The notes under the pieces were generated by a model. The model saw nothing but the letters and a program-made list of their open reading frames with translations. It made no database searches and was not told the origin of the DNA. A stretch of 64,000 nt of DNA, taken from assembly GCA_965178125.1 (NCBI GenBank), contig OZ237749.1, forward strand, positions 1,054,001 to 1,118,000, in the 5' to 3' direction. The position numbers and the translations under genes are program-made. The stretch's first letter is position 1. Each line of letters opens with the position of its first letter. The DNA comes from Bilabrum cf. latius (Eukaryota). Positions 18,901-62,252 of the stretch are shown here, one piece after another.

Positions 18901-21714
18901 TCGCACCAGCCAACAAGGTGGCTTTTGCCATCTTTATGGCCGCCTTGGCCCCAAACTTGACCGTGAACTTTGCCACCGCGTACGACCCGCCCGTCAGTAG
19001 AGACAGGGCAACGTCGCCCACTAGCTCAGAGACAAACTGACTCAGGAACTTGGACCACTGAAAGAAACTGTCCCCACTCGCAGGGTTGAAGCGAGTCCAG
19101 GCCGAACCGTACAGCGAGTAGTCGGAGAGCACGGCCTGCGGCCACTTGTCGTCCTCTTCGTGCCACTCCGCCGTGTTGGTCCGAAACACGGGCTCCTGCC
19201 CTGCAGCGAAGAGCACTGCATTACCGTCCCACTGCAGGTGGAATCTCCAGCGAGGGAAGCTGTGCGCAGGGGATGTCACAAGGAACACCTCCGCAGGGGA
19301 AGAAAATGCAGCCGTGATACCCCTGTCAAACACATCTGCAATCAGGGTTGTGGGCGACATGACCTTGTCCAGAGCCCCCAGCTTGTCGGGAGTCACGAGA
19401 GTGTTGTAGAGCTTGAGGCTATCCACAAACCACAGGATCTGTCCGCCCCCATCCACGATTGCCATCTCGGCCATAGATGTCATCACAAGGGCGTATGGGC
19501 CCTTCTGCTTGGCCTTGCGCTCCTTTATTTCATCTGTGTCCTCATGAAAAGACCCTGCGTGCGTAAAGCTACTCCACACGGCCTTATTCCTACCAAGGTA
19601 AAGGACCAGATTGCCGTCGGTCTACATGGTAAGCCGACCCAGCGGCACCTCCAGCGACTTGCCCTCCCTCAGGATCTAGCCCGAATGCATCGATTCAGAG
19701 CCCTCGGGCACATCCTCGCACTGGTCAAGCTGCTGCACGGTGCACGTGGGGCTGAACGGATTGTCTGTACGCGCCCTGAACCTGATGAGCCTCTGCCCAT
19801 GCTTGCCCAGTGGATTCGTAACAGAATCACCGGGGACTGTCACCGTGCTCCAAACCATGTGCGGATCTGCCATGGTGGCCTGCACGGCAGCTGCTTCAGT
19901 GCATGGGTCCCTCGGGTGCCTCGTGTCTGCGCGGTACACGTTGAAGTTCACCTGGGAGTCCTCCCAGTCGCCGTCGTTCGGCCTCCGCTTGACTCCCACA
20001 ACGGTAGCGCATGTGATAGGTCCCGCGTCTCCCGTATCCTCACGCCAAGTTACAGCTCCATCCCCATCGATGAGGGTCAGATCGCCCGCAGACGTCAAGA
20101 CAAGGGCGTAAGGGCCGTTCCTGTCGCTCTCGTCTGTCACTGACGTTTCGGTGGACCAAAGGGGGCGATATGGATGCTACTCCAGCTCCTTGGCAAGGTC
20201 TCGGTCCTGGTTGTCCCTGCATTTGCATACGACCCCGGGGGTGGCGCAGTTGTAGGCGCCTCCTTTGATCTCCATCTTGCTAGAGTAAAACTTGTCCTCG
20301 TCCTCGTCATACCACGCCGAGCAAGAAGTCTCCCGCATATAGAGCACCAGGTTGCCATCCGACTGCACCGTAAGCTTCGTGTCAACGACGTTGAGGTACG
20401 GTACCCCGCTGCGGGTGGGTATCTCAAAATCGGCTGCAAAGTCAAGTACCACGTTGAGGCCTTTGCGGAGGCCCTGCAGGAAATTCCCATCCACCGTCAT
20501 GGTGGTGATGACCCTCCGCAAGGAGTGGCCCTGCGTAATCAGCTGCCCGGGACGGAGGGATGATGCAGAATCCCCCACGTCTTCGCACACCGTGACATCC
20601 CCCTCCCCGCAGAAGCCCATGCCGTCTTGGCGCATCAGGTCCACCATCCAGTGCGTGCTCCAAAAATCCTGACTGTAGCCGCGGCGCAGCTTGGTGTAGC
20701 GCTCCCACCCGTTCATATCTTCGAGGCTCTACCAGCCAAAGTCCATGAGCAGATCTGCCCACTCGGACTTGATCTCAGTGCGCGTTTCCCAGATGACGCG
20801 GTGCTGCTAGTCCTGGATCTCGACGTTGCCCCGCTTTGTGATGTGAAGCCTCTTGATACGGCCCGCCGCAGAGGCGGAGCGAGACCATATCTCCTGCAAC
20901 TGACCGGCTTCTTTTGCGGCAGCGAGTGCCTGAAGGACGTTGTCGTCGTCATGGCCGTGCACCGCTGCCCGAAGAATCACGAGGTCCCCCTCTGACGTCA
21001 ACATCAGCGCAAACTGGCCATGCCCCCCGTCCTGATTGGAGTTTGACCTCCATATTGGACTGTTCATCCCGCCGAAATGCTCGAAAAGCTCCAGGTTGCC
21101 GTTCCCTTGAACGCACAGTTTGGCAAAGACTCCGTGAGCATCCCGAATGTGGGATTGCAAACAGCCAGACTGTTTGAGCACCTCACCAGGCAAAAGATCG
21201 CTGCTTTCGCCATTACCCTTCGCCTCCTTGCACCCAGATAGATCCTCCGAGTCGCAATGCGAAGCCGAGGCGCTGTGCCGATTCCGCCTGGCTCTTTGCC
21301 CAAAACTTCCACTTCTGGCATCCAGCGAGAGAAACTCCTTCAGATTCGCCGCATCCACCATGTAGAACAGCATTATTGAAATTGCAAGGTAGCTCGAAAC
21401 CTGTCCTAGGCGGCCTGACATCCTTCGCAACCGAAATCTGCAGATCGAATGGCTCGGTTGTCCGATAGAAAGACTTTTTGGGGATGCGTTGAAAACCGTG
21501 ATAAACGTGAACTTGTTTGGATATTATAGGCTATGCCTTTTGAGCTCTGTTTCGGTTGAGGCCAGGGTGTACTACTTTTCACAAGAAGAGCTTGGTATGG
21601 CCGCGGCGCCGGCGGCGGCCTGATTTCTTTACAAAATTAAACTAAATTAATCTGGTATTCTCTGGTGCAGCTACACATTGGCCATTTACGGCGACTAATG
21701 AAGAGAGGAAAGTC
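12917..21714. repeat. Segmental duplication unit 2
   Basis: Direct repeat of 300-9104; similarity ends at ...gaaagtc (9104/21714). Confidence 0.93.
13361..21421 (-). CDS. Giant secreted B-lectin domain protein, copy 2 (~2686 aa with TAG=Gln)
   Basis: Near-identical paralogue of 744-8777 at offsets 12617/12647/12644, so only in-frame indels (+30, -3 nt). ATG 21421, TGA 13361-13363. Confidence 0.88.
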
Positions 21715-22924: not shown

Positions 22925-25900
22925 TCACGCCATTGCGATCACACCGTTGGCGCCGTGCATGGCCGCCAGCAGCTTCTCCCGCATGATCTTCTCCGTAGAG
23001 TACTCAGGCAGCTCGATCTAGAAGAAGCACGTGTGCGCGATGGGCAGCGCTCTGTCGCCCAGGTTGCGCAGCCTCGTGTTGGCCATCTTGCCCACCTTGA
23101 AGTTCCTCTCCCACTGGGCACCCTAGGGGGGCAGCTGCGATCGGCCCCACGAGAACTGGATGAAGAGAGACCTCTCCTTGGGAGAAAAGCTCTCCAGCAC
23201 ATTCTTAAGACGCCGGATGACCGGGTGGGTCTTGCTCAAGCCATTGATGAAGGTGATGTGGTCCCACATGCGGTCCACGTTGATGTCCTTCTCTCCGCAC
23301 GCGGCCGTCTCCAGCTCCTCCGCGGTCAGGAGCCGCAGCGCGTTCATGGGGACCACCCGCCCGAGCCCCTTGCGCATGGCCTCGTACGCAGGCTCGTTCT
23401 CAGTGCCCCGCAGCGCCCTCAGGGCTCGGCAGTATGCCAGCACCTCGCCCTTGGTCGGAGCCGACGGACCCCCCGCACCGCTGGCCGCCCCTGCTGCATG
23501 CGCGGTAGGCAGGCCTGGCGGTCTCGCGAGCTAGACGAGAGTCCCGTCCGACCTGCGAGCCTCCCACACGAGCGTAGCTGTGGACAAGTGCCGCAGCACC
23601 CCCGGCACTGGCGTCCCCGGCCCGCCGTCCACATCCTAGGCCTCCTTGCGCAGCTGGTGCTCCATCTGCGCATAGTCCTCGTCCACCTACTCGATCATCC
23701 AGTCAGCGGGTTGCCGCTGCAGCAGCCTGCTCCAGACCATGGCCGCAAACTGGAAGGCTTGCGAGCGCTTGTTACGGATGGCCACTCCAATCAAAATGCC
23801 AGCGGCCTCGAAGGCGCGCATGGCCGCGGGATGCGTGGCGGCTGGGTTGACGATGAACGTCGATCCTCCCGCGAGCGAGTCGGACGGCTTGGGCGATGGC
23901 ATGAACACGTTGAGCATGGACGGGTCGAACATGTTCATCACGCTCTGGGACATTGCCTCGCGGTACAGCCCGCCTGCGTCGATGCCGTCCTCGTCCACCG
24001 TGTCGCCCCGGGTGTTGAAGGTCTGGAACACCACCGTGAACAGCTTCTGGTTGCCGTCCAGAGGGGCCCGCAGGTGCTTGTCGGGCCAGCCCCTCATCTA
24101 GTTGCCCAGCTGCATGAACAGGCACTGGCTCTGAGACGCAGACACGTGGCCCCGGTCCCTCGTCTGCAGTGCCTTCCCGTTGTGCAGCTTCACCTTGCCC
24201 GGCTTGCGGTCCCCAGCCTTGCTCTCGGTGGCCTTCAGGGCCTCGTCCAGGTAGGGCATCTTGCAGTCGGGTAGGATGAAGTGCCGCAGGGCGCCCAGGT
24301 GCGCCGCCAGCGTCCAGCCCCTCTGCCCCGCGCTACTGAGCACGCGATGCGCCACCGCGGACGGCTCAAAGGCAGACACCGGCGTAGCCTCTTGGGACTC
24401 GCCACCGGCCCCCAGCGCGCCAGAGGAGCCGCCCGCCTGCTGCGAGTCGTCCTGCGCGGCCTCTGCAAGCGCGTCCACGTCCACGTAGGGCAGCACCTTG
24501 GCCAGCAGCTGGTTCAGCAGCATTACCACAGACACGCGCAGTCGCAAGCTCTTGAAGTTCGATGGCTCGCAGTGCCGGTGCAGCAGCGGATAGGCCGTGC
24601 GGTGCGCCGCCGTGGGTCGCGCCCACCGATTGTACTGCAGCTGCGACTCCCTGCAGTCCCACTTCTTGGCCAGGTCCCGCAGCCAGCCCACCAGCTGTGC
24701 GTCGTCGGATACCGTCCAGGTGGTCATGAGCCTCTGGGCATCAATCAGGTCGCGGGGACTGCCGGCAGACCCGGCGCTGGTGGCCCTCTTGTTGTGTGCC
24801 ATCTTGTAGCACGAAGCCAAGAATCGCTCAGGTAGCGGCCATCTGTACCGTAATGCAGTGCAGATGCCGATCAGCCACTGGAGCTGGTCGAACGGGTGGG
24901 AAGGTGGCCACGCGGTGAGGCCCGCGACCACGTGCTTGCCGGCCTTGTATCTGTCCGCCTGCATGCTCACGCTCTGGGTCTCGTCAGAGGCGCCGAGCGG
25001 CTCCCCTCGCATGCTGCCGCGGGCCACAGTGGCCGCGCGGCGGGCCATGACTGCCAGCTGCAGCAGCTGCAGCTGCGGGCCCGGGACGCCCACCCCGCTG
25101 GTATCCTTCCTAGCAGCATCGATCTTGGACTTGAGCTTGTCGTAGAGCCCCTGCCCCAGCCGATCCAGCCCCGCGATGGTGGTCGGGTCTGCGCCGGGCC
25201 CTTCGGTGGGCAGCAGCTGCGGAGTGGCCAGCAGCTGGGCCAGCAGGTCCTGCACTTGGGCCTTGTAGGGACGCTTGGGCTCCAGCAGGTGCTTGGTCAG
25301 CGTGTCGATGACTACGGGGCTGTGCAGCGCACCGGTGGCCACCAGCCCGGGGGCATGCGTGCACAGGAACCGCAGCAGGAAAGTCCCGAACTCAAGGGAG
25401 CGGCCCTTGACCACCTGAGACTCCTGGTTCCAACTCAGGTTGCGGAGCGGCATCACGCGCACCCTCCACCCCCACAGGTCTGGCTTGACCTCCCCAAAGT
25501 AGATGCCCTGCGTCACGCGCACGCTGTCTCCGTCAATGAGGGCAGGCATGATTTCAGCGTGTCGGCTGCGACCACGGAGCACCCGAACCGTGTGCTCGGA
25601 AGCGCCGGCCTTCTTGGCCACAGTGACGACCCCCCCCTGCTGCATGGTCACTGCGGGAGTCTTGGTCCTCGAGTCAAACTCCAGCTGCAGCTGCGAGGCG
25701 CCGGGAAACCGGGCCTCCACCCAGTACGGCACTCCGGGTGGCAGTGGGTGCAGCGAGTGCAGGACCAGCGCCTCGCTCTCCACTGCCTTGGACCCACCCG
25801 CTCCTGTCTGCACGCCCGTGATGTTACGGACCACTTCACTGATGAACCCGGCCGCAACGGGATACCGAGCCATGGCATCCCCTGCCGCATCGCTCCCCGC

Positions 25901-28900
25901 CGCAGCCACTGACCCGGAGCCGGCCAAGGTCCCCAGCTGGCTCATGGAGCGCATGGCCGCGGCATCCCCGCTCGCAGCTGCCCGCTCCACCGCCTCGCTC
26001 TCTGACAGCAGCGCTCTCCGCATGATAGCACCCAGCACGTTGGCCGTGGACTGCTGCTAGAGGCCGGCGTGCGCCCCGCCCGCGTGTCCGTGCGACTCGA
26101 GCTGCGCTAGATATCCCGCCAGCTTCTGCGCCTCGGCAGCGGCTGCGTCCTTCCTGCTGAGCGCCCCGCCCGCCCCCTTGAAGTCCACCTCCGAGGCAGA
26201 GACTAGGCGGAACAGCCGCACGAGGTCCTGCACGTCGATGGGCAGCGACTGCGGGCTCGCGCCCCGAGGGGCCAGCGCCTGCGCCTGCTCGGCGTTGGCC
26301 TACGCGGTCTGCAGCAGCACCAGAACGGCCTCGCGGCTGTACAACGTGGCCAGCGCGTCATCCGTGACGGCAAGCGAAGCGGCCAGCCCCGCGAGCCCGG
26401 TCACCTCCGAGCTTCCCACCAGCGTGGGTCGGTTGAGCGGGAGCGCCACCAGCTTGCTGGGCCCCGTGATCTTCTTGCCGCCTCGCTGCTGCTGCTGCTG
26501 CTGCTGTTGTTGTGCCTCCTGGGCACCCTTGCTGCCGAAGAGAGGCGCCCTCCCCAGAGTCACGTTGAGCCCGATCTCCGGGGATGCCTTGTCGTCGCTC
26601 ACCGGCAGGTGGATGGGGATGGTCAGCTCCGCGCCGCTGCCTTCGCTCCAGAACGACACGCGGCACCGCAGCGACTCGAGCAGCCCCGACCTGTACTCCT
26701 GTTCCACGTAGTTCACAGTGCCCATGGATGCCGCGTCCATCGAGACGTCGTTCAGTCCCCCGTTCACGCTGACGGCGGCGCCCCTCCAGATGCCCTCGGG
26801 CAGCACGCCTCCCTTGTCCTGCTAAAAGTTGGGCACGAACGCGCACTGCTGCACTGCTGCCTCACCCATGGCCGCTGCTGCTGCTGCCGCGCTGGCAAGC
26901 ATCCTGGGCGGCAGCACTCCCGTGAAGGTGAAGCGGACGCCAGCAGCGGACAGCAGCTGAGCGTATGCCCCGCTGAGAGCCGCTGAGGCATCTGAGTCAT
27001 CGTCCCCGCTGCTGTTGCCGCCCTACGCACCGCCCCCGACTCCCCCGGCTCCTCCTGTCCTGGCCTCCTGCATCCTGAGAGCCATCACGCTTTGCTGCCG
27101 GCCCATCCCGCGACGGTGAGGGGTGCCAGACCCAGCGGAGGCCGCGGCTGACGCCTGCATCGCACCGCCCGTAGCTGCTCCAGCCGCTGACTTTCGGGCC
27201 GCGCCGCCGCTTTTGCTAGCCGGCGTCAGTGCCTCGGCATCGGGCGGGCCCACGGCGGCCGACGGGTCCGCAAGGAGCTCTGCCACAAGCGCGGCGACGT
27301 TCGCGTCCGTGACCGACACGCTGTCGTCCATGCCCCCTGCCTTGTTGGACCTGGTGCTGCCTCCCGACATGGCGGCCTGCATGGCGGCCTGGTCCTGTCG
27401 CCACGGCCCCACCATGGGGTCATCCAGCTGGGAGTGTGTGGCACCTCTGGCCGTCCAGCGGCTGTTGTCTGGGTCCAGGAGCCACTGCGCCGCCTGGTTG
27501 GAGTCACCCTGGAACATCTCCAGAGCCGCCCGGCAGATGGAGGAGTTCATTGCCGTCATGTCCGTGAGCGTGGTCACCAGCCCGCTTGCCATCAGATCCA
27601 TTCCGGTAGTGGACCCGGCCACACGTGCTGCCACCATCGCGCCGCCGGCGGCCCCAGCACCACCAGAGCCGGCCGCCGCCGCCCCGGTCAGCTTCTGCCC
27701 GGTCAGCGACTCGACTGCCGTCAGCACGCTGGCTCGAGCCGGAGTCACGGTCGCGTCTCCGTCTCCCCGGGGCAGGTCTTCGGCCCCTGCCGTGTCTGTG
27801 TGCGGGGAGAGGAAGGCGGCCCCCTTGGTCTGCCTCGCCTCTAGCAGCCACCGGTGCAGGGTTCTCCTCCTCTCGGAGAGGCTCGCGCGGGTGATCAGCG
27901 TCGAGTTGTGCAGGGGCCGCAGCGCCGCTTTGACCAGGGCACGAACGGCCTGAAAGCCGCCCCCACCTCCCGCGGCCGCCGCCCCCCGCGTGCCCTCTGC
28001 CAGCAGCTCCCTGATGGCAGGGCGCACCAGGCTGTACTGCGAGAGAGCGGGGAAGGAGCGGGCCGCGTGCAGCCGCAGCAAAGTCATCCAAGACACGTGC
28101 TCCACGGCGCGCTGCGCCCCGAACCCGTCCGCCCCGTCGATGTAGTTGGCCGGAGGCAGCTGCACCGCGGACAGGAAGAACTGAAGCAGGTCTCGGGGCA
28201 GCGTCGCAAGCCCTGCAGGCCCTGCCGTGCTTCCATCCGTGGGCACGGAGGACATGCGGGCCAGGGATGGGGGTCGACCCAAGGTGCCGGACCCGCCCCC
28301 GGACTCGTCTCCGGCCGCTGGGATAGGCATGCTGCCGGGGCGGGCGGCGGCCGCGACAGGTACCAGCCGCTGCACGCCCACTACCACCACTGGCAGCTGG
28401 CTCGGCTGCGGATACCCGATGCTCAGGTGGTCCAGCAAGCCAGCACCCGCCCGTCCGGCTCGCCCTCGGCCCCCCGCGGCTGCAGCGGCATCCACGTCCT
28501 CGCCTGACTCCGAGGTCAGCACCACCATGGCCTGCCCCACGCCGGGGCCGAGCAGCGCGGGGTCTGCCTTGTGCAGCTGCTGGTTATGCCAGGACCGCAG
28601 CACCCCACCCACGGGCGGCAGCTGCCTCCCCGCGAAGTTGCTCTGCATGAGCTCAGCATTCCTCGATGCCAGCAGCTCCCCGAACAGTGATCGGCCCAGC
28701 GACAGCACCACGCCCCAGCCCCCTTGACTCGAATCGTCCTCGTCGTCGTGCCCCGTGGCCTGCCGGGGCGCAGGCAGCACCCGCACGCGGCCGCCCACTC
28801 GGATGCACTCGGACGGTCCGCCCACCAGGCTGATGGCCGCCACGGCACGATGCACCTCGGCAGGGGACACCTCCGCCTCCTCCAGCGCATCCACCACGCC

Positions 28901-31900
28901 AGCGTACGTCAGTTCCGCCCCTCGCTCCTCCCCGCCCTCCGACGCCTTGCTCTCACCAGACCCACTGGAAGTCCCTGCCAGGGGCACCAGCCGCTGCAAG
29001 GCCGGCAGCACCCTCCGGATCACTGCCCCGATTGCCTTCCAGACCTCGGATCGCCAGGCGGTGGAAGCGGCCGACAGCTCGCACAGGCACGTCAGCGCCT
29101 CGGAGGAGAGGGCCTGCCTGGCCTTGCCCGGCCCGAACAGGGCCAGGGCAGGCAGCGCATCCGGCCTGGTGCTAGCAGCAGCATCCATGCCCTCTCCCTC
29201 GGCCCAACCCTCCACGACGCGCCCGCAGATTGTCTCGCCCGCTGACTGCAGCAGGAAGTGCACGAAGGGATGTGTTCCAGGCAGCGGTACCCACCGATCC
29301 GTGACCCCTGCACCTGAACCCGCCCCCGCCCCTTCGTCGCGCTTGCTCTCGCCCTCTCCCTCCGCCCCGTCCCCATCCTCCTCCTCATCCTCCCCCGACT
29401 CCTTCGACTCCCCGCCCAGGAGATCCTCCAGCCCGCCACCGGCAGACCGCATGGCCTGATGGATGGCACGGGAGGTCTCTGCGGGTGACAGCTGCCCTCC
29501 GATGGCGGAGAGCGCACGGAGTGCCAGCCGCTTGCATCTGGTGGAGAAGTCCTTGACCCCTTGGTCCATCTGCCACAGGGAGCCCCGGGCGGGGGGCAGC
29601 AGCAGTCGCACGAGGCAGCGCACCATACGGGGCACCGCCAGCAGCTGCGCACCGGACCGCGTGCGGCCGCAGACCACGATCGTCTTGAGCAGCCCGTGGC
29701 ACCTCTCCTCCAGCTCGAGGGGCTCCAGCAGAGACCACCCTTCTTCGGGTACGCCCGCCCCGGGGGCAGAGACCGATGCTGAGGACGGGCTCCGCATCCC
29801 TGGGGCCCCGTGGCTGTCGCTGCTGGCGCTTCGCCCGGGGGTGGGGGTGCGGCCCGAGGAGGACACCCGCCCGCTGCGCCCCCTCGCCAGTGACCGTGAC
29901 ACCATCCCCGCCCCGCGGATGCCCTCCTCGGCCGGCTGCATGAGCAGCGCCACCAGCTGCGAGAGCTCTGCCACCACTATTTCTACCGCCGCCGCCCGCA
30001 GCTACAGGAGAGACTGTAGACCCTCGAAGGACCCCACCGTCATCACCTCTTGCCCGCTGGCGCCCGCGCTGCGCCCCACGGACTCCCTGAACTCCGTCAC
30101 GCTGCTGGCCACCTTCTCCTCATCCGTGTCCCGCGCGAGCGCGCACAGCACCAGGTACCGCAGGAGATGGTCGGCTCTATCGGAGAGCGACTTGTCCGCG
30201 GCTGCCTCGTCATCAGCGCCCACGGCCCTATACCTGCCCCGCATGCAGACGCTATCCTCGAGGCTCTGCAGCACGGGTAGCTCCTCCGGGCCACGCAGCA
30301 GGCCCTGCATGGACCGTGACAGGAGCGGGCCATCGGGGAGCCCCCCATCGTCTGCCTCTAGGGGGTCAAAGGAAGCGGCGTGACGGATGGGGGGCGCGGG
30401 CTACATGGAAGGTCCGCCCCCGCTGCCCGCGCCTGCCCCGCTGGAGGGCCCCGCCGGCACGCTGCGCAAGGGAGCCTTGACCCCAATGAGCGGCGTGCGC
30501 TCGTCGAAGAGCCCCTCCAGGGACGGGGGCGGGGCGCGGGCGGTGCACAGCCCCTCCATGATCTGCAGCAAGTGGCTCGTGGTGACCGTGCGCTGCACCT
30601 CGCGGAGGCTCCCCCGCAGCCCCTGCTGCTCCAGGAAGGCCGCCGCCTGAGGACCGGGCATCACGCGGGAAGCGCTCCTAAGCACGAGCCCCAGTGCCCT
30701 CCTCTTGGGCAGCCCACCTTGCAGCAGAGCGGCGCTCGCCCACACGAGGCGGTCCGCGGGTGACAGCAGGCTGGCATCTCCAGAGGGTCTTCCCTCTTTG
30801 GTGGACTCCTGCAGGCTGTCCCATTGGGAAGAGGTGCCCGCGGCCCGCAGCGCGGCCCCCTCCAGTGAGGCCAGCCGCCTGAGGGCAGGGAGAAGGCCAG
30901 ACCGCACCACCAACTGCCCGTCCGTGGGCCTGAGGTCGATGCTCCACGCACGCATCACGCTCGAGCACACGGGCCGCAGCACCGCCACGTCCGACACAGT
31001 CAGGGACAGCGAACCGTCGGCTCCCCCGGGGCCGCCCGCCGCGATGGAAGACACGCCCGGCCGCGAGACAGGCACAGAGCCGGCCGAGCTGGCGGCCTCC
31101 TCCAGCGCAGCGGCGCACTGCCGCAGGACCGTGGAGGCGTCCCAGTAGAGCGCCTCGAAGGCCGCCTGCACTGCCTCCCTCAAGTCCGAGGCGCATCCCT
31201 CCAGCAGCGCCGAGGGGTGCGCCGGGCTCCACGTGGGCTGCAGGGCAGTGGCAGTTGCGTCCTAAAGCATGGCGGCCGGCTCCAAGGCGTCCACAGAGGC
31301 GGTGTCGTAGCCCGCGGCAGCGAGGGACGCAGGCAATGCCGCGGCGGCTGCAGCAGACCCAGGCCGCTGAGGACCCACCAGCACTCCAGCAGAGGCCCCT
31401 CGGGCGGCCATGGTCGCGCGCACCATGCCCAGCGCCCCAGCCGCGCCACTGGCCGCAGCCGAGGCGGCCTGCAGCACCATCATGGACGGGCTCCTGTCCC
31501 GCAGACTGGAGGAGGCTCGCCCAGATCCACCCCCGGCTGCCGTGGGCATCTCATCGGACCCAGCCCCCGAGGCAGCCCCGAAGGCGCCGCCAATGGCCTG
31601 GAGAGCACCCGCCGCGCCCATGTCCCCCGCGCCGCCTCCTGCGAGAAGAGCGTCCTGCACGTCGAACCGCCCGCCGTCTCCCTCGATTCCACCGCCATCT
31701 GCAAGCCCGCCCGATCCGTCGTCCTGCGCACCACCACCTCCCCCCGCCCCTGCCTCATCCTCCGCCGCCCGCACGTCCTCTGGAATCCACCGGTAGGCAA
31801 ACTGGCCCCGCATGGCAGGCACCAGCAGACGGAAGGCCCCGGCCACGAACGGCCCCAGGCCCCCCTGGAGCATCTCCCGCGCATCCGCCCACCTGCGGCC

Positions 31901-34900
31901 CCCCGTGTGAGACAGGCGGGACAGGGACCTCCTCGCGTGGCTCTGCGCCCGATGCAGCGCGTCAGGGGAGGAGCCCCCGTCGCTGCCCGACTCGCCACCT
32001 GCCCTCGTGTCCCGTGGCTCCCTGAATGCCTCCCGCAGGAACGCAGTCATGGCCCGCAGACCGCTGGCCCGCTGGGAGGCTCGCACTCCTCGGAGGCGCA
32101 TGAGGGCGCGCAGGGCGGCAGGGCCGGGCTTGGAGTCCGCCTCCAGGTAGTACCGCAGCGACTTGAGCACCATCCCAGTCACCCTGCTCTTGAGATCACC
32201 CGCAGCAGGACCCGAGCCCTCACCCCCCTCGGGGGCCCCTGTTGTTCCCTGGAGAAACTGGGACCAGGGGTCCCGCTGGGCCCGCATCGCCCGGTCCACC
32301 ATAGCCTCCCAGTCCACTAGCCCCGCGCCCTGTTCCCCGGCCTCGTCCCCGCCCTCGTCCTCGTCCTCGTCCTCGGCACTGGTCTCGAAACGACTGGGCT
32401 GCAGCCCCAGCCCGGTCTCGCGCACAGGCACCTGGGCGGTAGCCGACACGCTCAGCTGCTGGATCTGGCGGCCCACGTCTCCCCGCAGCCCGTCCACCCC
32501 TGAGCTGTCAAGCGCGGGGTGCATCTGAGCGATGAAGGAGCACTGCTTCCGCACAGCGGCGGCGGCGGCCTTCTGCTCCTCGTCCGACCTGGTGCCGATG
32601 CGGGCCCGCACGATGTCCAGCACCTCGGCCACCTGCTGCAGCGAGGGACTCGGAGTCAGGCTCGACTTGTTCCCCCCAGTGTTCAGGTGCTTGGCAGCGG
32701 CTGCGACCTCCTGGTGCACCCAGGGCCCCGCGTGTGTGACGAGTGCGGCCAGGATGGCCCTATCGGTGCCCTTCTTGGTGTACCTGGACCTCTTCTCGAT
32801 CCTCGTCAGCACCTTGACCTGCCGCAGGTAGTCCACGCTGTCGGCCACCGCCTGTTTGATCTCGGCGCGGGACAGCAGTCGCTCGCCCTCCCCTTCTCCA
32901 TCTTCCCGGGAAGGTGCAGCCCCCCCACCCACGGAGCTCGATCCAGAGGCGCTGGAGGCAGCCCCGCTAACCCCCGCACCCTTGCCTCCCGCTGCCTTGG
33001 GCAGCAGCCCAGTGGCGGCCCAGTCCTGCGCCCAGGGGCCCGCCGCCCCCACACCCAGCACACACCCCGCAGCGAAGGACTCTTTGGCCAGCCCCCTCGC
33101 CCTTGCTACCTCCTTCTCCTCCTCGTCCTCCTCTAGCCCCACCGCGCCGAGGGCCGCGGCACCGCCCGCCTGCGCCTCCCGCCGCCCCTTGGCCACCACG
33201 GGGGCCCGCAGCCAGAGCGCCGCCCTGAGCTCTTGCGACCCCACCAGCGGGCCGCTGACCAGGGTCATGGCCAGGCGGGGGACCAGCCAGGCAGCCGCAC
33301 GGCGCACCGCCCGCCACACGGCCCCCAGCGCATGCCCCGCCCCCGCCGGCCCGGCAGCCGCCAGCCCCGCCATTGCGTCTCTGGACACCCTGAGTGCAGC
33401 GAGGGCCGCGGGCAGCGCGCCCTCCGCCAGCAGGGGAGACCTGAACAGGGAGCACGCAGCGCCTAGGGCATCTGCCACGCAGGGCCCCAGCACCGCGCAT
33501 GTGCTGCTCCCCGCCCCCGTGCGATGGGCCGACCGCTCCAGCCGGGGCACCGCCGCCCGCAGCAGCTCCACCAGTGCGACCACCGACGCGTGGCTCTGTC
33601 CCGGGTCTGCGCCCAGCATCGTGCCAGCCTCTCTACCACGCCGGACCGCCTCTGCCGCCAGCCTCTTGGCGTACGTCTGCAGCAGTCGCACGGCCTCGAC
33701 CGGGGCCTGGTTTGCCTCTCCTCCCCCTTGGATCGCGAGCGTGTCCACGGAGGCAGGGTCCGGGTGCAGGTCCACACCGTGCGTCCCGTCCTCTCCGTCC
33801 TCTTGCTGGAAGCCATGGACAGCCGCGCTCTCCCCTTCGTCTCGCGCGGGCCCCAGCCCCGTCTTGTCCTCGAACAGGGCCTCCACCGCCGTCAGCAAGA
33901 GCCGCACCTGCTCCCGCTGACGCTGCACCTCGCCGGTGGCGGCGTACTCGGCAGCGGTGCTGGTGGGCAGGGGCAGGGGCAGGAAGCCGCCGATGCGCCT
34001 CTGGGCCCCTCCACGCACCACGGGCAGCAGCACATCCCGAAGCACGAGCGCCACGCGGGGGAGATCGACGGGCCCACCGGGGGAGGGGGTGGAGGACGGG
34101 CCAGCGGATGACCCACCGCACGAGCCAAGGGCGCTGAACCCCAGAGTGGCCAGACTGGCCGGGTCTGCCCTGCTCCATACATCCGCCCCTTGAAGCAGCA
34201 CCTCTGTGGCCGCCCGGAGGCTGTCAGCAGACAGGGACGGGGGCACTGGCACGTCCACCGGGTCATCGTCCGCGGGCGGCTGCAGGGCCGCAGTGGGACT
34301 GGCGGCGGGGTTACCACTGCCCGAAGCACCCGAGGAGGAGGCCGCCACTGCCGCCCTTGCCATGTCCACAGAGGCTAGCCCCGTGGAGCGGGCGGCGCAC
34401 CTGACCAGGAACTTGGCGATCTGCTGCAGGGGGCCCGTGTCCTGGAGCCCCCCCGCCTCTGCGTCACCCGCCCCGTCCTCGCCCTCGTCCTCGTCAGAGT
34501 CGTCCCCAGCTGCGGCTGCCGCCCCCCGCGCGCCCGCAGCCCCCACACCCTGCCCCCCCTGTGAGTCGAAGAGCACCTCGGGGTCCACGCCGCTGGCCCG
34601 CAAACCCGCCGCGAGAGCTCCCGCCAGCTGCAGCGCCCGATCCACGCCCTCCGTGTCTCCAGCGCGCCCCGCCCTCTGCAGGAGGTCGCACACCTCCACC
34701 GCAGTGGGCTGCCCCACCTCCAGGGCGAATGCCACCTCGGTCTGACCCGGCCGCAGCCCCGCGCCGCCGCCCGGTTGCGTGACGGCGGTGGCAGCGGCGG
34801 CAGCTGTGGCCACGATGGAGTCAGCCGCCCGCGCCAGCGTGCTCACGTCGGCGGCGGGGCACGCGTCCCCCGCCCGCAGCCCGGAGGACTCCAGCAGTGC

Positions 34901-36478
34901 GTGGCAGATGCCGCGCACCTCGTGACCCGGGACCACGTCAGCGCTCGCGCTCGCTGCCGGGCCCAGTGCCTCGGCCACCCGTCGCAGCGCCCTTGCCTGG
35001 CCCAGCACCAGCGCGCCGGACCCCACCACCAGGACCAGCCGGCCTGCCGCGGCAATAGCCGACTGCGCCGGCCGTGCCTGCCCCGCCGCCGCACACGCCT
35101 CCGCCGCGGCCCACAGCCACTCACAGACGTGTCCCACCGCCCTCCGCACGGGCGCAGGTTTCCACCCGAGCCCTGCCATGGCCCCCAGCACGCCACCCGT
35201 GGCTCCGGAGGCGGCGGCGGCGCGGGCGGCCTCTACAGCGTTCGAGGGGGCCGCTTGCAGCACGGTGGTGCGGAAGCCCCACGCGCCCAGCGACCACTGA
35301 GCCTGCGGGTTTATGGCCTGCGATGCCGGCGCTCCCCGCGGCAGCCCCCCTGGCCTGGGCTGCCCAAGGTGTAGCACCACCAGGTCAACGCTCTCGGGCC
35401 GGGACGAGGACGAGGAGGAGGAGGAGGAGGAGGAGGAGGACGGAGCCGCGGCTCCTCCTGCGAACGACTGCTTGTGAAGGGGGATGCGAAGGGGCGGGGC
35501 GCCGTCCCTGGGTGCCTGCGGGCCCGTGCGTCGGCTCCGAACCGTGCCACTTCCCTGGTACAGGATGTGGTGCCCGGGGGGTGCGCCCGGGACTGGGGAG
35601 TTCTCGCCCGGGGGCAGGCGCTGGAGCAGCTCGACCACGACCTGGACGTCGGACTGCGGCTTATCCGAGGGCAGCAGGATGGCCTGATGGGGGGTCTGCG
35701 CGCGGGGGTCCCACCCCGGAGGAACGTTCATGACCACCCTCCCGACGCCGTGGCCCTGCAGCGTGCAGTGCGTGTGCCGCCCGAAGTGGTCCAGTATGGA
35801 GGCACAAGAGCCGTGGCACCGCATCATGCCGCTCTGGGTGGTGACCCAGCCGGTCGGGTCGACGGGCATCTCGCGCGCCGGCATGGGTGACCACAGCGGC
35901 ATGAGGGCTGGCTTGGCGACAGCGGCTGCGGCGCTCGCCAGGGCATGCGTTGGAGTGCCTGGCTATCCGTAGCTACCACTGCCCTCCGGAGGTGGACATG
36001 CTTGTGAAATCATCCGATCTACCGCCGACACGACATCTGGCAGCCTATCGAATGGAAGCAGAGGCCCGTCTGGACCACGGGAGAGCAGAGTCGCAAGCAT
36101 TGCAATCACCATAGGTTGCCCAGGGGGCTGGCGCAGAACTGGACCTTGCATCCTAGTGACCGAGCCATTTGAGTCATCCTGCTAATTGGTCCCGTCCTCT
36201 GGCATAGGAACAGCCTCCTTCAAGTTCAGCAGGTGGCGCTGGATCCTCGCGCTCGGCACCAGCAAACGCACGAGCCTCTTCTAAAACAATTCCAAGGGGG
36301 GCTTGTCGTCCTTTACAAACAGCCTAGACAGGGGGTCCACTCTAGGATCCGATGCAGTGAGAGGAACCCCTTTGGGCAGCGTGGTCCCATCGAGCGCGGA
36401 TCGTTCATACTTGCGAGCCTGCGCAGCGCCCAAAGCTCCCGCGCTCAAAGTAAGCTCAAAGTCTTCGGACGATGACAT
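22925..36478 (-). CDS. Giant HECT-domain E3 ubiquitin ligase with UBA-like domain (~4517 aa with TAG=Gln, no introns needed)
   Basis: Ten ORF pieces lie in one frame, joined only across TAG (16 counted). ATG 36478 (MSSSEDF), TGA 22925-22927. HECT motifs EDGIDAGGLYRE, FIQFSWGRSQLP and catalytic LPIAHTCFF*IELPEYS..MREKL. UBA-like LTDMTAMNSSICRAALEMFQGDSNQAAQWLL at ~27475-27570. The start codon is inferred. Confidence 0.88.
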
Positions 36479-36704
36479 CAATTCAACAAATTGGCTATTG
36501 CAGCCCTGCAGTACGAACACGCAGCAGCCACACGCTGTTGACCTTTCTCAGCAAAGCGCAGGAAGTGGTGCGGAACCAAAATCGGCGCCGCGTGCTTCGG
36601 ATTGGCCACGGGGCAGGAGAGCTCAATGATGAGCAACACAAGTACCGCATTGAGTAGTGGAACATCCACGTGCATATAACAGAGTCATACAATGCTGGAT
36701 CTGA

Positions 36705-39155: not shown

Positions 39156-39186
<31 letters not shown>

Positions 39187-39881
39187 GAGGCGCCACCCGG
39201 CCCTTGCACTGCAAGGGGTTGCAGTCGCACCACCCCGTCCACGGGTCCCTCCGCGCGCAGCACCAGCGGGAGTCCCCGCTCCCGCCAGCCACGCCACGGG
39301 GGGGGGCAGTCCTGCGGCTCGCTGCCGGCGGGCTCGACATGGTACTTGCGGTCGTATCGGGCATAGCTGCGGTAAGACGTCGGGCGAGAGCCGTCGCTAG
39401 AGTCTGTGTTTCGGCTGCGCCACTCGCCAGCACCAGAGCTTGCCGTTCTGCCGCTTGGGTGAGCACTACGTCGTCCGCGGGCTTTGGCTGCAGCCGCAGC
39501 AGCCGCAGCAGCCGCAGCAGCCGCCGCCGCTGCTGCAGCGGGCTACTGTATGCCATTCTTTCGCTCAAGCCGCCGTTTCTTTGACACCCGTAAAGCCTCA
39601 GAGCGCTGAGCGGACAAAGATGGCGACTGTGGCTAAGTCGCTGAGCTAGGGCTTTGCCATGAATTTCGTCCCCGTTTCGATGCCTTTCCTGGTCCTGAGC
39701 CAAGGAGCCCTCGTGATTGATTCTAAGATCTTCCACGCGATTCTGGGCGCGGTCCTCTTCCATGACTCGCTCCACCAAAGCCTCGAGAGCCGCCTACAAA
39801 ACGTGACTGTTCCCGAGGATTGTAGTGATTTGTGTACGGCCCACTCCTTCCGCCACCCCTTCCTCTTGAGTAGCCCGACAT
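36705..39881 (-). CDS. Non-canonical poly(A) polymerase, Trf4/PAPD5 (TENT4) family (~1058 aa with TAG=Gln)
   Basis: Motifs FGSRTTGLALPHSDWDLVV, ARIPIVK, IDVCFD, RGLQETYTGGLGSF, NLGFLLYSFLDYFG, DIGRNSY. The frame runs through six TAGs from an RGG-rich N-terminus (MSGYSRGRGGG) to TGA 36705. The start codon is inferred. Confidence 0.85.
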
Positions 39882-40019
39882 CGTTAATAACTGTTTATGC
39901 GGTACCAGACAGGTTCGTATGGGCCTTCTGCTGCGAATAATTCGAGTATGCTCCTCGAAAGCGGTTGCAACCGCATAATTGCCATCATGGTGCATGAGAG
40001 GCAATTTCAGTCCCACAGC

Positions 40020-42135: not shown

Positions 42136-42651
42136 CATGATGACGATTCAATTGGCAGCGCATATCTCACGCGCGCATTCGTCAGCACCATGGTCCGAAG
42201 ATGAAGACAAACTCCGGCCGATCCGACCTCCTCCCAACGTGTACAACTTGCGAGCCCTTGCCGCAAGTTTCGCGAGCGTACGGCTATCATGGCCGCTGCC
42301 AAACAGACGTCTACAAGTGTGAGGTATCCGCAACATGTCGCGTCCCTGATGGGCTGCGCAGCCACCGTGGGTTTTTTTGCAACACTCTGACCAACACCAA
42401 GAGCATCGCAGCGGCTTCATCTACGGTTTGGAGAGACTGGAGAGCAGCTATTTGCCGGTAAATATTACGACTGCAGCGTAACGCTGTGTGAATCTCATTT
42501 GAGCGATGCCAATACAGTGCCTGGGTGAGTCTCAAACGGTTGCCACTAGTAGCTCGCGTATCTTGGGTTGGTATTCACCACGCGCAAGATCACGCCAGAT
42601 TGTTCCAGTTTTTGTATCGTTCGTAGTGTACCTGTCCGTGTTCGGATAGGC

Positions 42652-45534
42652 ATGGAGTACGACGGAGGGCATGCGATCCCCGTTGATGGTGGAGCTAAGA
42701 AATAGGCATCTCTGATTCCGCCCAAGACGATCCGGGACGGGTCAGCGCCTCGTCGTTCTCACTCCAATCAAGATGATGGCTGCTGCTGGGTCAAAATTCG
42801 GATGCCAGGTCAGACAGTTCCGCGATCAGAGCCGATCGTGGAGCTAAATGCGGACGGTACTGCGCACTTCCAGTTTGAGCTGAAAGCCCCTGACAACGAG
42901 TTGCTTGACCGCCCGCTAGCCCTAAGGGCAACTGCAGTTGGATCCGATGGTACCTTGGATGCAACCATGGAGACTCCAGCACGCGAGGTAGAGAGTGAGG
43001 CGAGCAAGACCTTCTCGCTCGTTCGATTTAAGGTTCGTTTCTTGGGCAGTATTGACGAGGAATGGTACAAGGATGAGGGCGGCAAAGAAAATTGCATCGA
43101 GGCGGACGTATGTGTCGTCAACGCGGTCGGGCAGCGGCAGCCACTGGGCACACCGGTGCCCCTTGAGGTGCGCGCTCACTACGCGGCGAGCAAGCGCGCG
43201 GCAGGCACCTACTCATCCGGCGGTGCCTCGAGCATCATCAGCATGCTTCCCCTGCACGACGGGTCCACGTCTCAGCTGGACCCCGGCACGGGGGATGGGC
43301 GCCTGCGGGTGCGCTTCAACGAGGTCAGCTCCAAGCACGGCCAGCAACCCTTCTGCATCCGGTGCGGACCCGCTGCGGCCGAGGGTGACGTCAGGATGCG
43401 TCACATCGGGTGGGGCTATTCCTCGGGAGTGAAGGTCAAGAGCAAGCGGCACGGGGCCAGGCGCAAACAGGCCGCGGCCAAGGCGGCGCGGGCCAAGGGG
43501 CAGGCCATCCAAACTCCGGGGGAGGCGGCGGGTGCTGGTGTGGCAATGGGAGGGGGGACAGCTGCGGAGGAGGCGGCACGGGCCGTGGGTACCAGTGGGG
43601 CAGGGACAGGCGCGATGCCCAACGGAAGGGGCCCTGGTGCACCCTCGTCTTTGTCCTCGTCCTCGTCTGCATCTGCGTCGGCAGGGCTCGCAGGCGCCGG
43701 GGCAGCTGCTGGTTCCCACTCGTCGACGGGCAGCGTCCCTCCAGTGCTGGCAGCGGCGGGCCGCCTGCCCAGCCAGGGCCAGGTGGCTGCCTCCCCCCCG
43801 GAGCAGCCCTCCAGCAGCCCCGGGGGTGCGGCCAACGGCGTTGTGGAGTGGACGAACGAGGTGTTCGACCTGCTGGGCGCGCTGCAGTGGAGGGTCATCG
43901 GGTTCGAAACGGATGCACACGGGGTCCCTGACCGCAGGCTGCCGCTGCTGCGGTGCCCCGCCTGCTACAGGACGCTGTCCACCGTGGAGATGCAGGCCCA
44001 GATGGGCATGGGCATGGGCATGGGAGGGGCGGGCGGTGCCTCTGGGATAGGGAGGCACAACCGCGGGTGCCGCATCGAGAGGGCAATCAAGCTGTACCTC
44101 AGCGCCACAAAGGAAAACCTGCACGTGCTGCTGCGGCATATCCACGGCGACAGAAAGGTGCAGATGGCCATGCAGGCCATGGGAGCTAACGCGAATGTTG
44201 GCATTCAGCAGCAGCAGCAGCAGCAGGCCTCGGGACACGGGGAGCTCTTGCACGGGCGGGAGCAGGGGCACGGCGGCGTTGCCTCCTCGTCGTCTCGCTC
44301 GGCGAGAGGGGCTCGTGCGGCCCGTGGCAACGAGAGGGGACCGGCTGCGAGCGACGAGGAATACGAGGAGCCGGGGGCTGGGAGGGGCGCGGGCCGGAAG
44401 CGGGGGCGGGTGGAGGCGGGGCTGACGGGGGTGGGGGGAGGCAAGGGCAGGCGACGCCCGTTGCGGGCTGCCGCTGCTCAGTCTCGGGCTGCTCTGGCAG
44501 AGACGGTCAAGATGGAGAAGGAGGACTCTCTGGGTGTGGGCGGGGGCAGCTTCAGCAGCAGACAGGGCTTGGGGGAACAATCCTAGGGATAGGAGCAGGA
44601 GCCGACCAGCGCGCAAATGGCCATGGCGGCAGCCGCCTTCCCGTCCGCCTCTCCTGACGGGCTGGATGAGGCCTTCCCCTCCGTTGATGCAGATGTGGGT
44701 GGAGTTGGCTTAGTGGGGCCCGGGGTGAGGGGGTCGTCAAGCGGGGGAAGATATCCTACACCCAGCAGCATACAAGGGGGGGCGCCAAGTGCCTCCTCAA
44801 GCGTGATGGGCATGGAAAGGGGCATGGGCATGGGCATGGGTGCCAGCATGGGTGGCATGGGTGGCATGGGTGGCCCAAGCACCTCGGGGCAGGTCACACT
44901 TCCCCCGCCCCTGCCCTCCCGCGAGATGTCGCTCCCACGGGATGCACCGGTGCACAGTGCGCTGGATACCCTCAGCGGGGCAGGGGGTACGGGGGCCTAT
45001 GGCATGCTGCGGGGCTCTTCCGGGCTTGGGGGGCCCTACGTGGGGCGTGCGAGCATGTCCTCCCCGCAGGATGCTCGGGGGGGTGCGGGGTCAGGGATGG
45101 GGATGGGCATGGGGATGGGCAGCATGGGCCCGCCCAGCGCGGAGAGGGGCCAGTCCGCGGGGTCGATCGGGAGCCTGCTAGAGGGCTCGAGGGGACCGCC
45201 GCAGCTGCAAGCCGGGGCCAGCCTTGACCTCGGAGGCGCCTTGGGGTTCGCGCGCGGGATCTCCACGCTGTCCGAGACAGAGTCCGGGGGCCATTGGAGC
45301 AGGGGAGAGGCAGGCCCGCCCGGGAACGGGGGCAGGCGCAGCCGGGGATCCGGGTCAAGCATGAGTGGGATGGATGCCGAGGCAGAGTCGGGGCGGCAAC
45401 CAGATGGGTCCAGCGGGTACTTGCCGCATCCAAGCCCGTCTGCCAGCGCCGCCGGAGGTGATGACAGCTTGGGTGCTCGGCTGCAGAGCGAGCTGGTGCG
45501 CGGATTTAGTACAGGCTCGCAGCTTGATGACTAA
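42652..45534 (+). CDS. Uncharacterised protein with putative Ig-fold (CudA-like) DNA-binding domain and low-complexity tail (~960 aa)
   Basis: One frame from ATG 42652 through TAG 42703, 44584 and 44590 to TAA 45532. Globular segment WYKDEGGKENCI..RFNEVSSKHGQQPFCI..VKVKSKR. The family call is from recollection only. Confidence 0.6.
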
Positions 45535-45752
45535 AATACCAGGAGCAAAATGATAAAGCCTTACCCTAATTTCAGTGCATGTTGGGCTGAAGCGCTTCAA
45601 AACAGCGACTTGGTACGGCTCTGTGGAGATTAAAGGTAGATCTATGCGAGTGCATTGAAGAGCACATTTCATTATTAGTGGGATCCTCTTGGGGCACAAT
45701 GCAGTACAATTCAATGAAACTACATCATGGGATCAGCGGCTGGAGCACCAGC

Positions 45753-49314
<3,562 letters not shown>

Positions 49315-49501
49315 GTTGATTTCACAGCGCCTGAAATAATAAATTATAGCGTGAGTGCAGCAGATACGATTTTACGAAGCATTCGAATCTTTGCGGTTTG
49401 ATCAAGCAAATAATCAAGTTCAAGTCTGTTCACACGGCGAAACAGGGATCCTGCGCCGATATCGTTGGCATGCCTCGGCAACTATCAGAATCCAATCGCG
49501 T

Positions 49502-55500: not shown

Positions 55501-57287
55501 TGTTGTGCTTCGAGGGGCGGTACGGCCTGTGTCCTACGAGCATCTGGTGCGTGGTTATGCCCAAGGCGTAGTAGTCCGCCATGTGGTCGTGCCTGTGCCC
55601 CTGCATGAAAATCTCGGGGGCCATGTACGGGCTGCGGGGAGAGAACAAGGGGGCGACCGAGCAAGCAAGCGAGAAATGGGGGCAGGATAATGTATTCGGG
55701 TATGCTACGCGGCTAATCGCCCGAGCAACGTCAGCCGCGAATCAGCATTGGGAGCGCCCTCGGCAGCATGAGCCGGCTCCAAGCAGGCAGGAACACTGGC
55801 TCCATGCCGAGGGACGGACTCGCTCCAATAGGCTTCTGGCGCGGGAATGGCGATTATGTGAGTGTGTCTTGCTCTTGGGACGGTCTATCGGCGCTCCATG
55901 CCGGGGCCCCGTCAGCACAGTCGCCTCGGCATCGAGCTGACCCACCAATGGACCTGACCGCATCTCGAGGGGAGCGGTCGCTCACGGACCGCCGAGCCGC
56001 AGCGACCGCGCCGACAAACCTTAACCAAGGATTACCGCCGGTTTGACACCTGTCTTTCCGTAGTCATACTGCCTTGTCAAGAAACCGATGCCACGGCATT
56101 GACCAGAATGCGGAATGTACTCCAGATCGCACCTCGGGCGAGCGAAGCATTGCCGGCAGGGCGGAAGTCCTCAGTCAGAACCAAACGCGAGCCAAAACAT
56201 CAAATGCAAACAATCGCTACTCCTACTAGGACCCTGTCTCACCGTGTTCCAGAGGTGTTGCGGCATTCGCCATTGTCATCCATAGCGACCGAAATCCCCA
56301 AATCCGTCACCTTTATGTACCCATCCTCGTCCAGAAGTATGTTCTCTGGCTTGACATCCCGGTGAAGTACTCGCTGCCGATGCATATAATCGAGGCAGAG
56401 CAGGATCGAAGCTGCATACTATTTGGCCTAAGCCTCCTGAAACATCCGATCCGTCGTCTACGTCAGCTGGTAGTGCAAATCTCCGCCCAGGCAAGCGTCC
56501 ATGACCAAATAAAGATACTTGTCATCCTAAAATGCGTAGTGCATGTTCACAAGCTGAGGGCAGCGAAGCCTGCGATAGGGAAGGGCACGACGCAAGCCGG
56601 CGGAATTCTTGAGGTCGGTTCTCTGTGCTACAGCTTGCGGCCACTAAGATCAGTGGGGGCACACCAGCAGCATTTATGCATATTCTTCCGATGCGCTGTC
56701 TTGCGCAGCTAACAAAACGTGCCACGCGCGCCGCACTGGCAGCTCAGTGGTGTTGGAGGTACGAGAGGCCTCTCACCGTTCCAGCAGCTGTCTTTCGTTC
56801 GACACCATCTCTACGTGTTTCCTATTTATCACAGTATGTTTCTTGATGCTCTTCATGGCGTACAGCCGGTTGGCATCCGTCCCGGTTTGCTTCCGTACGC
56901 ACGTAACCTTGCCAAATCCTCCCTGCAATGACTTGTGCTTGGTTTGCCGCAAGGTTCACGGGATGTGGGACGCGTGCGAAAATCAAACTAGTCTACTGCA
57001 AAGCTATGCAGGCCTCCGCCGTGTCTAGCGCAGCATCTACCGCTGCAGGCTGGGCAGGCTAGGCAGGCAAACCTGCAGAATTGCAAGGTAGGGCTACTCA
57101 CTTGTCCGACCACGCGTTCGATTGTGAAATGTTCCTTTGAAACATGATGCAGATCTGCGATATGTGGCAGGAAGCCGCATGAGCAGAAGAAAAGGGTCCA
57201 AGCGGCGGTGCACCCTGTGGCATCCGGCGGTGGCAGCTGAGGCAGCGACTTACCCGGCTGTAGAGCACTCGACGAACCGCAGCCCAT
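49502..57287 (-). CDS. AGC-group Ser/Thr kinase with MGCGSS acylation motif and very long disordered tail (~2229 aa with TAG=Gln)
   Basis: Exons 57287-57254, 57154-57102, 56922-56777, 56569-56243 and 55631-49502 (6690 nt, divisible by 3). Motifs [49 protein letters not shown]. The tail continues across four TAGs to TGA 49502. Confidence 0.88.
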
Positions 57288-60125: not shown

Positions 60126-60335
60126 AGGAGAAACTATTCACCAATGAATGGCGGGCTAATGTGACTTTCGCTGTGTGTAGCATTCCCGCTCCGGGTACCG
60201 GTATACTTCGGAAAGTTTTGCTCGTAACGGAGGAGGTAGAGAGCCATTGCAGGAGCAGCCGGTAAATCTTGCATTTTATTTAGTTTGGAAGCGCTCCTCT
60301 GTCGTTTGAACAAATTTGGTTGCGGTTTGATGCAG

Positions 60336-61029: not shown

Positions 61030-61479
61030 CTGTGAGCACCGGTGCTGCCACTACCAGAGGTTGGGTGTGGATCGATGTCTACCTCGGAGACATGAGCCGC
61101 TAGAATGGTGTAAATGCAATGCACATATACGGATGCGCTGTTGAGCGGGTTCGCCGCCGGCGATTCCGGTTCCTCGGCGGCGCGAGCCTCGAGGTTCCGT
61201 TCGCCGACGGCGTTTTGCTTGATCGCCCCGGGTCACAAGTAGTTACTCACGATGGCGGGGGTACCTGGTAAGACCATCGCATTGATTCTAAGTCACTGAT
61301 CATATTTTGAAGCTTCCGAGTGTTGGTGCAAACTCAATGGTTGCGTTGTCTGGATCTGTAACACCCGAGAACGCACTGAACTTCCCCATTCATGCTCGGT
61401 CACAAATAGCCTACAAGTACGGATCCCGCAAGCCTTTATTTAAAACGCAGAAGAAGCGAAAGCAGGGGAGGGTTCGCGA

Positions 61480-62153: not shown

Positions 62154-62252
62154 GTATCGCAGCAATGAAGCTGCAGTGGAAGCAATTGTATAGAATTGCG
62201 CGAATCAGATAGATTTATTTGCGGACTTGATCTGCTTGCCCTTCGCTCCAGC

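Follow-up and report, generated by a model that had tools for sequence, protein, structure and literature searches.

UAG-only glutamine codes in described eukaryotes

The stop codons UAA and UAG almost always acquire a new meaning as a pair, and the portions of two papers on which we draw here (PMC5304391, PMC11687900) explain why: a UUA anticodon would read both codons by wobble, so that the two are usually reassigned jointly. The cases in which they have been decoupled, as far as those portions list them, are few (Iotanema, a rhizarian, Scotinosphaera, Protocruzia, and some phyllopharyngeans), and these cases show that eRF1 and tRNAs can distinguish UAA from UAG. Here we describe a 64-kb stretch of DNA (contig OZ237749.1 of the Bilabrum cf. 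latius assembly GCA_965178125.1, forward-strand positions 1,054,001 to 1,118,000), hereafter the window, that probably records a further case. In its genes TAG very probably specifies glutamine, TGA is the usual stop codon, and TAA is missing from the reading frames and stands at the end of one gene, o42, at positions 45532-45534 of the window.

Among the described codes, that of Iotanema spirale (Fornicata; Panek et al. 2017) is a close counterpart, with UAG read as glutamine and UAA and UGA kept as stops (PMC5304391). The sections of that paper cited here report 204 in-frame UAG codons in 126 genes, in-frame UAA or UGA only in retained introns, and, among 119 complete transcripts, 104 that end at UAA and 15 that end at UGA; as a mechanism, they propose a tRNA-Gln(CUA) together with an altered eRF1 (PMC5304391). 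Our window resembles Iotanema in that UAG alone appears to have become glutamine, with no UAA or UGA in frame. Unlike Iotanema, for which UAA is the main stop, the window has TGA at 10 of 11 non-redundant gene ends and TAA once; its DNA is GC-rich, its proteins are not fornicate, and its code is deduced from DNA sequence. The same assignment, with UAG as glutamine and UAA and UGA as stops (table 15 of NCBI), is given for the phyllopharyngeans Hartmannula sinica and 'T. petrani' and for Protocruzia tuzeti, and in these ciliates UAA marks 93.5-100% of aligned C-termini, according to the part of PMC11687900 used here. The window shares with them the codon table and the wide use of UAG inside genes, but its genes are very long and GC-rich, some are interrupted by spliceosomal GT-AG introns, and nothing in it is ciliate-like. 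Elsewhere, UAG alone has been reassigned to leucine, in the rhizarian exLh and in metagenome-assembled genomes (MAGs) of phyllopharyngean ciliates from TARA, or to serine, in Scotinosphaera (PMC5304391, PMC11687900, both in part). As in these lineages, UAG in the window is decoupled from UAA and UAA is apparently kept as a stop; unlike them, it is glutamine that lectin, kinase, and HECT positions indicate here. The codes of table 6, in which UAA and UAG (together UAR) both specify glutamine, are those of hexamitin diplomonads, many ciliates, and ulvophycean green algae. The window is like them in its use of TAG as glutamine and of TGA as main stop, and unlike them in that TAA, which they also read as glutamine, is excluded from its frames and ends a gene.

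In the literature covered, with subscription journals mostly outside that coverage, we found no UAG-only code described for a stramenopile, a haptophyte, or another GC-rich marine protist, and no nuclear code change reported for stramenopiles or haptophytes. If our reading is correct, a non-ciliate, intron-containing, GC-rich protist adds an independent origin of the decoupling, in a compositional setting opposite to that of the known cases, where the main stop is TGA and not TAA in this protist. For gene prediction in this genome, table 15 would be needed in place of table 6 or table 1.

TAG as a sense codon and its probable meaning

The window consists of nuclear DNA of a eukaryote and is rich in GC (0.49-0.75 per kb); when TAG is read as sense, it resolves into a few very long open reading frames (ORFs). 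Codons were counted in a non-redundant set of 14,042, from which one of two lectin paralogues (lecB), a HECT fragment (11763-12488), the second beta-tubulin copy, and the second of two small paralogues were left out. In this set TAG stands in frame 68 times, and the domains that contain it include B_lectin, HECT, and Pkinase. More than one in-frame TAG is present in 8 of the 13 counted gene segments, which the standard code would break into pieces. The 68 in-frame codons are drawn from 208 TAG trinucleotides in the counted ORFs, which is the one third expected of an unconstrained sense codon.

Which amino acid does TAG specify? Much of the answer comes from the two lectin genes, both on the minus strand. 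The first, lecA (747..8777, within an ORF at 747-8843 that is recognized with TAG as sense and by its Pfam B_lectin repeats), encodes a B_lectin-repeat protein of 2,677 codons with 26 in-frame TAGs, no TAA, and a TGA stop. Its tandem paralogue lecB (13364..21457, within an ORF at 13364-21523 of about 2,700 codons; 97% DNA identity) has 28 in-frame TAGs, again with no TAA and with a TGA stop. Each carries six copies of the bulb-lectin sugar-binding motif [Q/TAG]xDGNxVxY, the first codon of which is CAG in three copies and TAG in three in lecA, and CAG in two and TAG in four in lecB (seven TAG and five CAG over all 12 copies); in the solved lectins that align to the motif region, the residue at the TAG position is glutamine. 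The two genes differ at 193 codons, and eight of these differences involve TAG, which is paired with CAG four times, with AAG twice, and with TGG and AGG once each.

Two further domains provide positions of the same kind. In an internal exon of an AGC-type kinase (56242..56577, minus strand; Pfam Pkinase, E = 9e-30), which contains four in-frame TAGs, one TAG aligns with the glutamine of YAFQDD/YAFQTE in STK32A and RSK2. In the HECT ubiquitin ligase, a single ORF of 4,540 codons (22928..36547, minus strand; Pfam HECT, E = 1.5e-44) with 16 in-frame TAGs, no TAA, and a TGA stop, a TAG in HTCFFxIELP occupies a column in which glutamine is the commonest residue (9 of 25 homologues); the remaining four TAGs of the HECT domain fall in variable or gapped columns. 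From these alignments, TAG is very probably a glutamine codon. The kinase exon is also AT-richer, and its four TAGs in 112 codons equal the number of its CAGs (four).

TAA outside the reading frames

In the same 14,042 codons that hold 68 in-frame TAGs, neither TAA nor TGA occurs in frame, and the domains without an in-frame TAA include HECT, kinase, lectin, tubulin, rhomboid, and poly(A)-polymerase. Could GC bias alone account for this? The codon pairs that differ only by a final A or G are informative here: CAA and CAG number 79 and 495, AAA and AAG 68 and 361, and GAA and GAG 124 and 635, for a pooled A-ending fraction of 0.154 (15.4%). At that fraction, 68 UAR codons would be expected to include 12.4 TAAs, and none is observed (P = 1.2e-5). 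In lecA alone there are 22 CAA and 84 CAG codons, but no TAA beside the 26 TAGs. Off frame, the trinucleotide is available; TAA occurs 63 times in the counted ORFs, always out of frame (P = 8e-12 if the three frames were equal), and TGA occurs 467 times out of frame and never in frame. Thus, TAA behaves like TGA and unlike TAG, and, from the A/G ratios and the off-frame counts together, GC bias is insufficient to explain its lack.

Nor is the zero count a circular product of how the ORFs were defined. When TGA is taken as the sole stop the same ORFs are recovered, and TAAs are added just at their outermost ends: two in lecA, four in lecB, one in the poly(A)-polymerase-like gene, two in o42, and none in the HECT and kinase genes. 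The TAAs added to lecA lie upstream of a methionine followed by a hydrophobic, signal-peptide-like stretch. The in-frame TAG nearest to a stop precedes it by 30 codons (codon 4510 of the 4540 in HECT). With no TGA or TAA in frame, the hallmark of codes that lack dedicated stops or read them by context, of the Condylostoma and Blastocrithidia type, is absent.

A TAA at 61441..61443 on the plus strand calls for separate comment. It precedes, by 8 nt, base 61451, the first to follow a CGCAG common to two small paralogues, A (about 60389-61026) and B (61451-62061), with first exon bases at 60389 and 61451, respectively. Upstream of CGCAG the two copies are identical at 31 of 92 positions; downstream they are identical at 76 of 150 (with 20, 20, and 34 differences at the first, second, and third codon positions) and then at 208 of 210 in a core. 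At the place that matches the TAA, paralogue A has a run of T. The CGCAG site is thus most likely a 3' splice site, as judged from these identities, which would put this TAA in an intron, or else in the 5' flank, of paralogue B; an intronic TAA lends no support to a sense reading of the codon.

A sequence-only reading of this stretch had argued, from the absence of in-frame TAA against dozens of TAGs, that TAA is not a sense codon, and had posed the choice between a rare UAG-only code and the common UAR code. The counts agree with its argument and favor the UAG-only side, and the observation that it named as decisive for the UAR code, in-frame TAA at glutamine columns of conserved domains, was sought in all 14,042 codons and not found there. 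Two of its reservations do not hold up: high GC does not suffice to remove TAA from the frames, and the TAA at 61441, which it placed in a segment perhaps still homologous to paralogue A, lies upstream of the shared CGCAG, where little identity remains.

The gene end at 45532

If TAA is not read as an amino acid, does it terminate translation? Gene ends can be defined for 15 genes of the window, and 14 of them are TGA and one is TAA; without four duplicate copies, the figures are 10 and one. The TAA, at 45532..45534 on the plus strand, is the only one to terminate a gene in the window and stands in the frame of the ORF that, with TAG read as sense, begins at 42529. This ORF (42529..45531, plus strand) is the last, and possibly the only, exon of o42, which encodes a protein of the DG1062_N family and contains five in-frame TAGs, three of them after its first ATG at 42652. 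No in-frame ATG occurs further upstream in the ORF (42529-42651), where two adjacent TAGs form codons 7-8, and amino-acid similarity to a metagenomic orthologue described below extends upstream of that first ATG (..VRSVPVRVRIG M.. in o42 versus ..TRSIPAKVRIG L..). The true start may therefore be in an upstream exon.

What changes at the TAA is the composition of the DNA. In the 150 nt before and after the stop, GC falls from 0.65 to 0.43 in o42, from 0.64 to 0.47 in beta-tubulin A, and from 0.63 to 0.47 in the kinase gene; with so similar a drop at these TGA ends, the TAA end of o42 resembles those of TGA-terminated genes. The GC content of third codon positions (GC3), taken over blocks of 61 codons, is mostly 0.69-0.90 along o42; the final two blocks have 0.84 and 0.66, and the 60 codons that lead from the TAA to the next in-frame TGA, at 45715, have 0.43. 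Scored by codon usage learned from the remaining genes of the window, those two blocks reach +0.45 and +0.32 per codon, and the sequence past the TAA -0.79. The coding signal of o42, in other words, ends exactly at TAA 45532.

Beyond it lies an AT-richer spacer of 218 nt (45535..45752; GC 0.43), in which each of the three frames scores between -0.76 and -0.88 per codon and which, if read through in the frame of o42, presents one more TAA and two TAGs before TGA 45715. At its far side, 218 nt past the TAA, stands the convergent stop of beta-tubulin A (TCA on the plus strand, 45753-45755). A downstream exon of o42 is unlikely in so short a spacer between convergent stops, and the 3' untranslated regions of both genes must fit within it. 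The sequence-only reading had singled out this position as the one gene end in TAA, with an abrupt switch from coding-like GC-rich to AT-rich sequence, and had called the evidence on TAA thin. Its description of the site stands, and so does its caution, since the number of such ends is still one.

Relatives of o42

Homologues of o42 were sought as a further source of information on both codons. A HMMER search of 1.84 billion representatives returned 204 relatives at E<=0.001, and the family is assigned to DG1062_N in the ESM Atlas. One close relative (P0028) is 94% identical, and two N-terminal pieces (P0029/P0178) are 53-54% identical. Among the named members of the family are those of the ochrophytes Tribonema, Heterosigma, and Entomoneis, and its Atlas clusters are commonest in Oomycota and Haptophyta. 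A scan of JGI metagenomes with the single o42 protein gave nothing; a scan with an alignment gave six loci, only one of which (L001) is a close relative, the other five (L002-L006) being single exons of distant family members that are uninformative on the code. A search of genome contigs returned no relative of o42, and the 32 nt at its 3' end had no exact match there.

The L001 contig, of 2,452 nt and 56% GC, carries an orthologue of o42 with 54% amino-acid identity, in an ORF of 611 codons (618-2450) that runs off the contig short of the C-terminus of o42. In its frame there are six TAGs, no TAA, and no TGA, and off frame there are 10, 12, and 17, respectively; its CAA and CAG codons number 7 and 19. 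From this pattern, TAG as a sense codon and avoidance of TAA are common to at least two well-separated members of a clade.

To what organism might such a code belong? Beta-tubulin is 94.3% identical to that of Phytophthora and 91-93% identical to those of green algae and others, and its 90% clusters span kingdoms. Homologues of the HECT protein are about 30% identical and include Eimeria, Polarella, and Achlya, and a search with the poly(A)-polymerase returned just four matches, in green algae and streptophytes. Judged by these protein affinities, the source would be neither a ciliate nor a fornicate, and the affinities, with those of the o42 family, lean to stramenopiles or haptophytes. We can imagine a non-ciliate, GC-rich clade of marine protists, with at least two members (separated by the 54% identity of one orthologue), that evolved a UAG-only glutamine code independently, and regard this broader proposal as a speculation with odds against it.

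Interpretation and alternatives

Taken together, we consider it likely that the nuclear code of this genome assigns UAG alone to glutamine, with UGA as the usual and UAA as a rarely used stop, the pattern of NCBI table 15. Mechanistically, a tRNA-Gln with the anticodon CUA would pair with UAG and not with UAA, and eRF1 would have lost recognition of UAG while keeping that of UAA and UGA; that TAA terminates so few genes (1 of 11) would be explained by the strongly GC-biased coding sequence.

There are observations that weigh against this interpretation, and most of them concern whether TAA is a stop at all. One gene end is what speaks for TAA as a working stop; the C-terminus of that gene has no covering homologue (P0028 aligns only as far as query residue 693 of 961), and among the 1.84 billion representatives searched with HMMER there was no separate fragment of the o42 C-terminus. 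The window contains no tRNA gene (ARAGORN, Rfam), no other Rfam family, and no eRF1 gene. With 14 of 15 gene ends at TGA, the data are also compatible with a code in which TGA is the sole functional stop and TAA is unassigned or nearly unused, read efficiently by neither tRNA nor eRF1; TAA would be missing from the frames in that case too, as expected of an unassigned codon, and TAA 45532 would be a recent TGA-to-TAA or sense-to-TAA mutation at which ribosomes stall or from which they go on to TGA 45715. We judge this to be improbable; it is exactly at the TAA, and not at the TGA 61 codons on, that the coding composition breaks off, and an ancestral TGA that mutated would have to have sat, by coincidence, precisely at the coding boundary. 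A share of about 1 in 11 for TAA among stops is, moreover, usual in GC-rich genomes with the standard code. Far less probable still is the ordinary UAR code of the table 6 type, in which TAA would also be glutamine, missing through GC pressure or sampling, and o42 would run to TGA 45715. It would accord with the usual joint change of UAA and UAG (PMC5304391 and PMC11687900, in the portions cited) and with the high coding GC3 of 0.7-0.87, but it is opposed by the dozen or so TAAs expected and not seen, by the 63 TAAs that are all off frame, by the CAA and CAG counts of lecA beside its TAAs and TAGs, and by the 60 codons past 45532, which are non-coding-like in every frame. The metagenomic orthologue L001, at only 56% GC and with 7 CAA beside 19 CAG, likewise has TAG and no TAA in frame.

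The remaining observations on the unfavorable side bear on the amino acid. One TAG of the kinase exon stands at a position occupied by leucine or phenylalanine in the aligned AGC kinases, in a stretch of the ARFY type (F or L), and it is the only TAG site that fits glutamine badly. Two of the eight TAG-involving differences between lecA and lecB pair TAG with AAG, a lysine codon, and of the two TAGs of o42 covered by P0028, one aligns with lysine and one with glutamine in a reading by eye. Might TAG, then, encode another amino acid, such as lysine or leucine, while TAA and TGA remain stops? Codes with UAG as leucine and UAG as serine do exist (PMC11687900, in part). Nevertheless, seven TAGs stand where the lectin sugar-binding motif has its glutamine and where sister copies have CAG, and the YAFQDD glutamine of AGC kinases and the HECT column in which glutamine is commonest agree with them, leaving a different amino acid with only a very slim chance. 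The UAG-only glutamine code is the reading that we prefer.

Other genes and duplications in the window

Several genes of the window have been mentioned only in passing. Between the HECT gene and o42 lie the poly(A)-polymerase-like gene (36708-40058) and o40, an ORF without a family assignment (40243-42132). Beta-tubulin A (45753..47430, minus strand; Pfam Tubulin and Tubulin_C) consists of three exons, with two GT-AG introns near its 5' end and a TGA stop, and it is followed by its inverted copy, beta-tubulin B (47627-49314; 96.5% identical). The introns were read on copy B, and the exon peptides were located in the gene; from these two introns, spliceosomal introns exist in the genome. Copy A has no TAA in frame, and neither copy has a TAG there, though their third exons hold 17 CAGs each. 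The inverted, head-to-head duplication as a whole spans 45749-47433 and 47624-49318, at 96.5% identity, and its boundary is 4 nt past the stop codon. On the minus strand, the AGC-type kinase gene has its last exon at 49505-55640 and a further exon, upstream of the internal one, at 56776-56955. It is followed along the window by a DUF155/RMND1-like gene (57679-58959), a rhomboid gene (59274-60137), the two small paralogues, and a C78 peptidase (62256-63998).

Five small ORFs that end in TAA (10288-11088, 21727-22275, 56047-56712, 60276-61232, and 61550-62590) were not counted as genes. Three of them (56047-56712, 60276-61232, and 61550-62590) are antisense to better-supported genes, and Pfam gave no match for four of the five in a scan of 130 ORFs, among which 61550-62590 was not included.

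The two lectin genes are carried by a tandem duplication of 8.7 kb (300-8998 and 12917-21644; 97.3% identical). Their products, of about 2,700 codons, look secreted and have B_lectin repeats at both ends, and the long middle is Lys/Ala-rich and acidic, without a family assignment. The 13.6 kb of the HECT gene seem to form one exon without interruption, while the tubulin, kinase, and small paralogous genes have introns. Its 3' end and downstream flank have been copied in part between the lectin genes, at 11514-12159 and 12732-12986, from 22680-23311 (91% identical) and 23896-24150 (97%). The copy has lost internal parts, yet its frame is still open, with two TAGs, and its TGA stop is kept; it is a pseudogene or a truncated paralogue.

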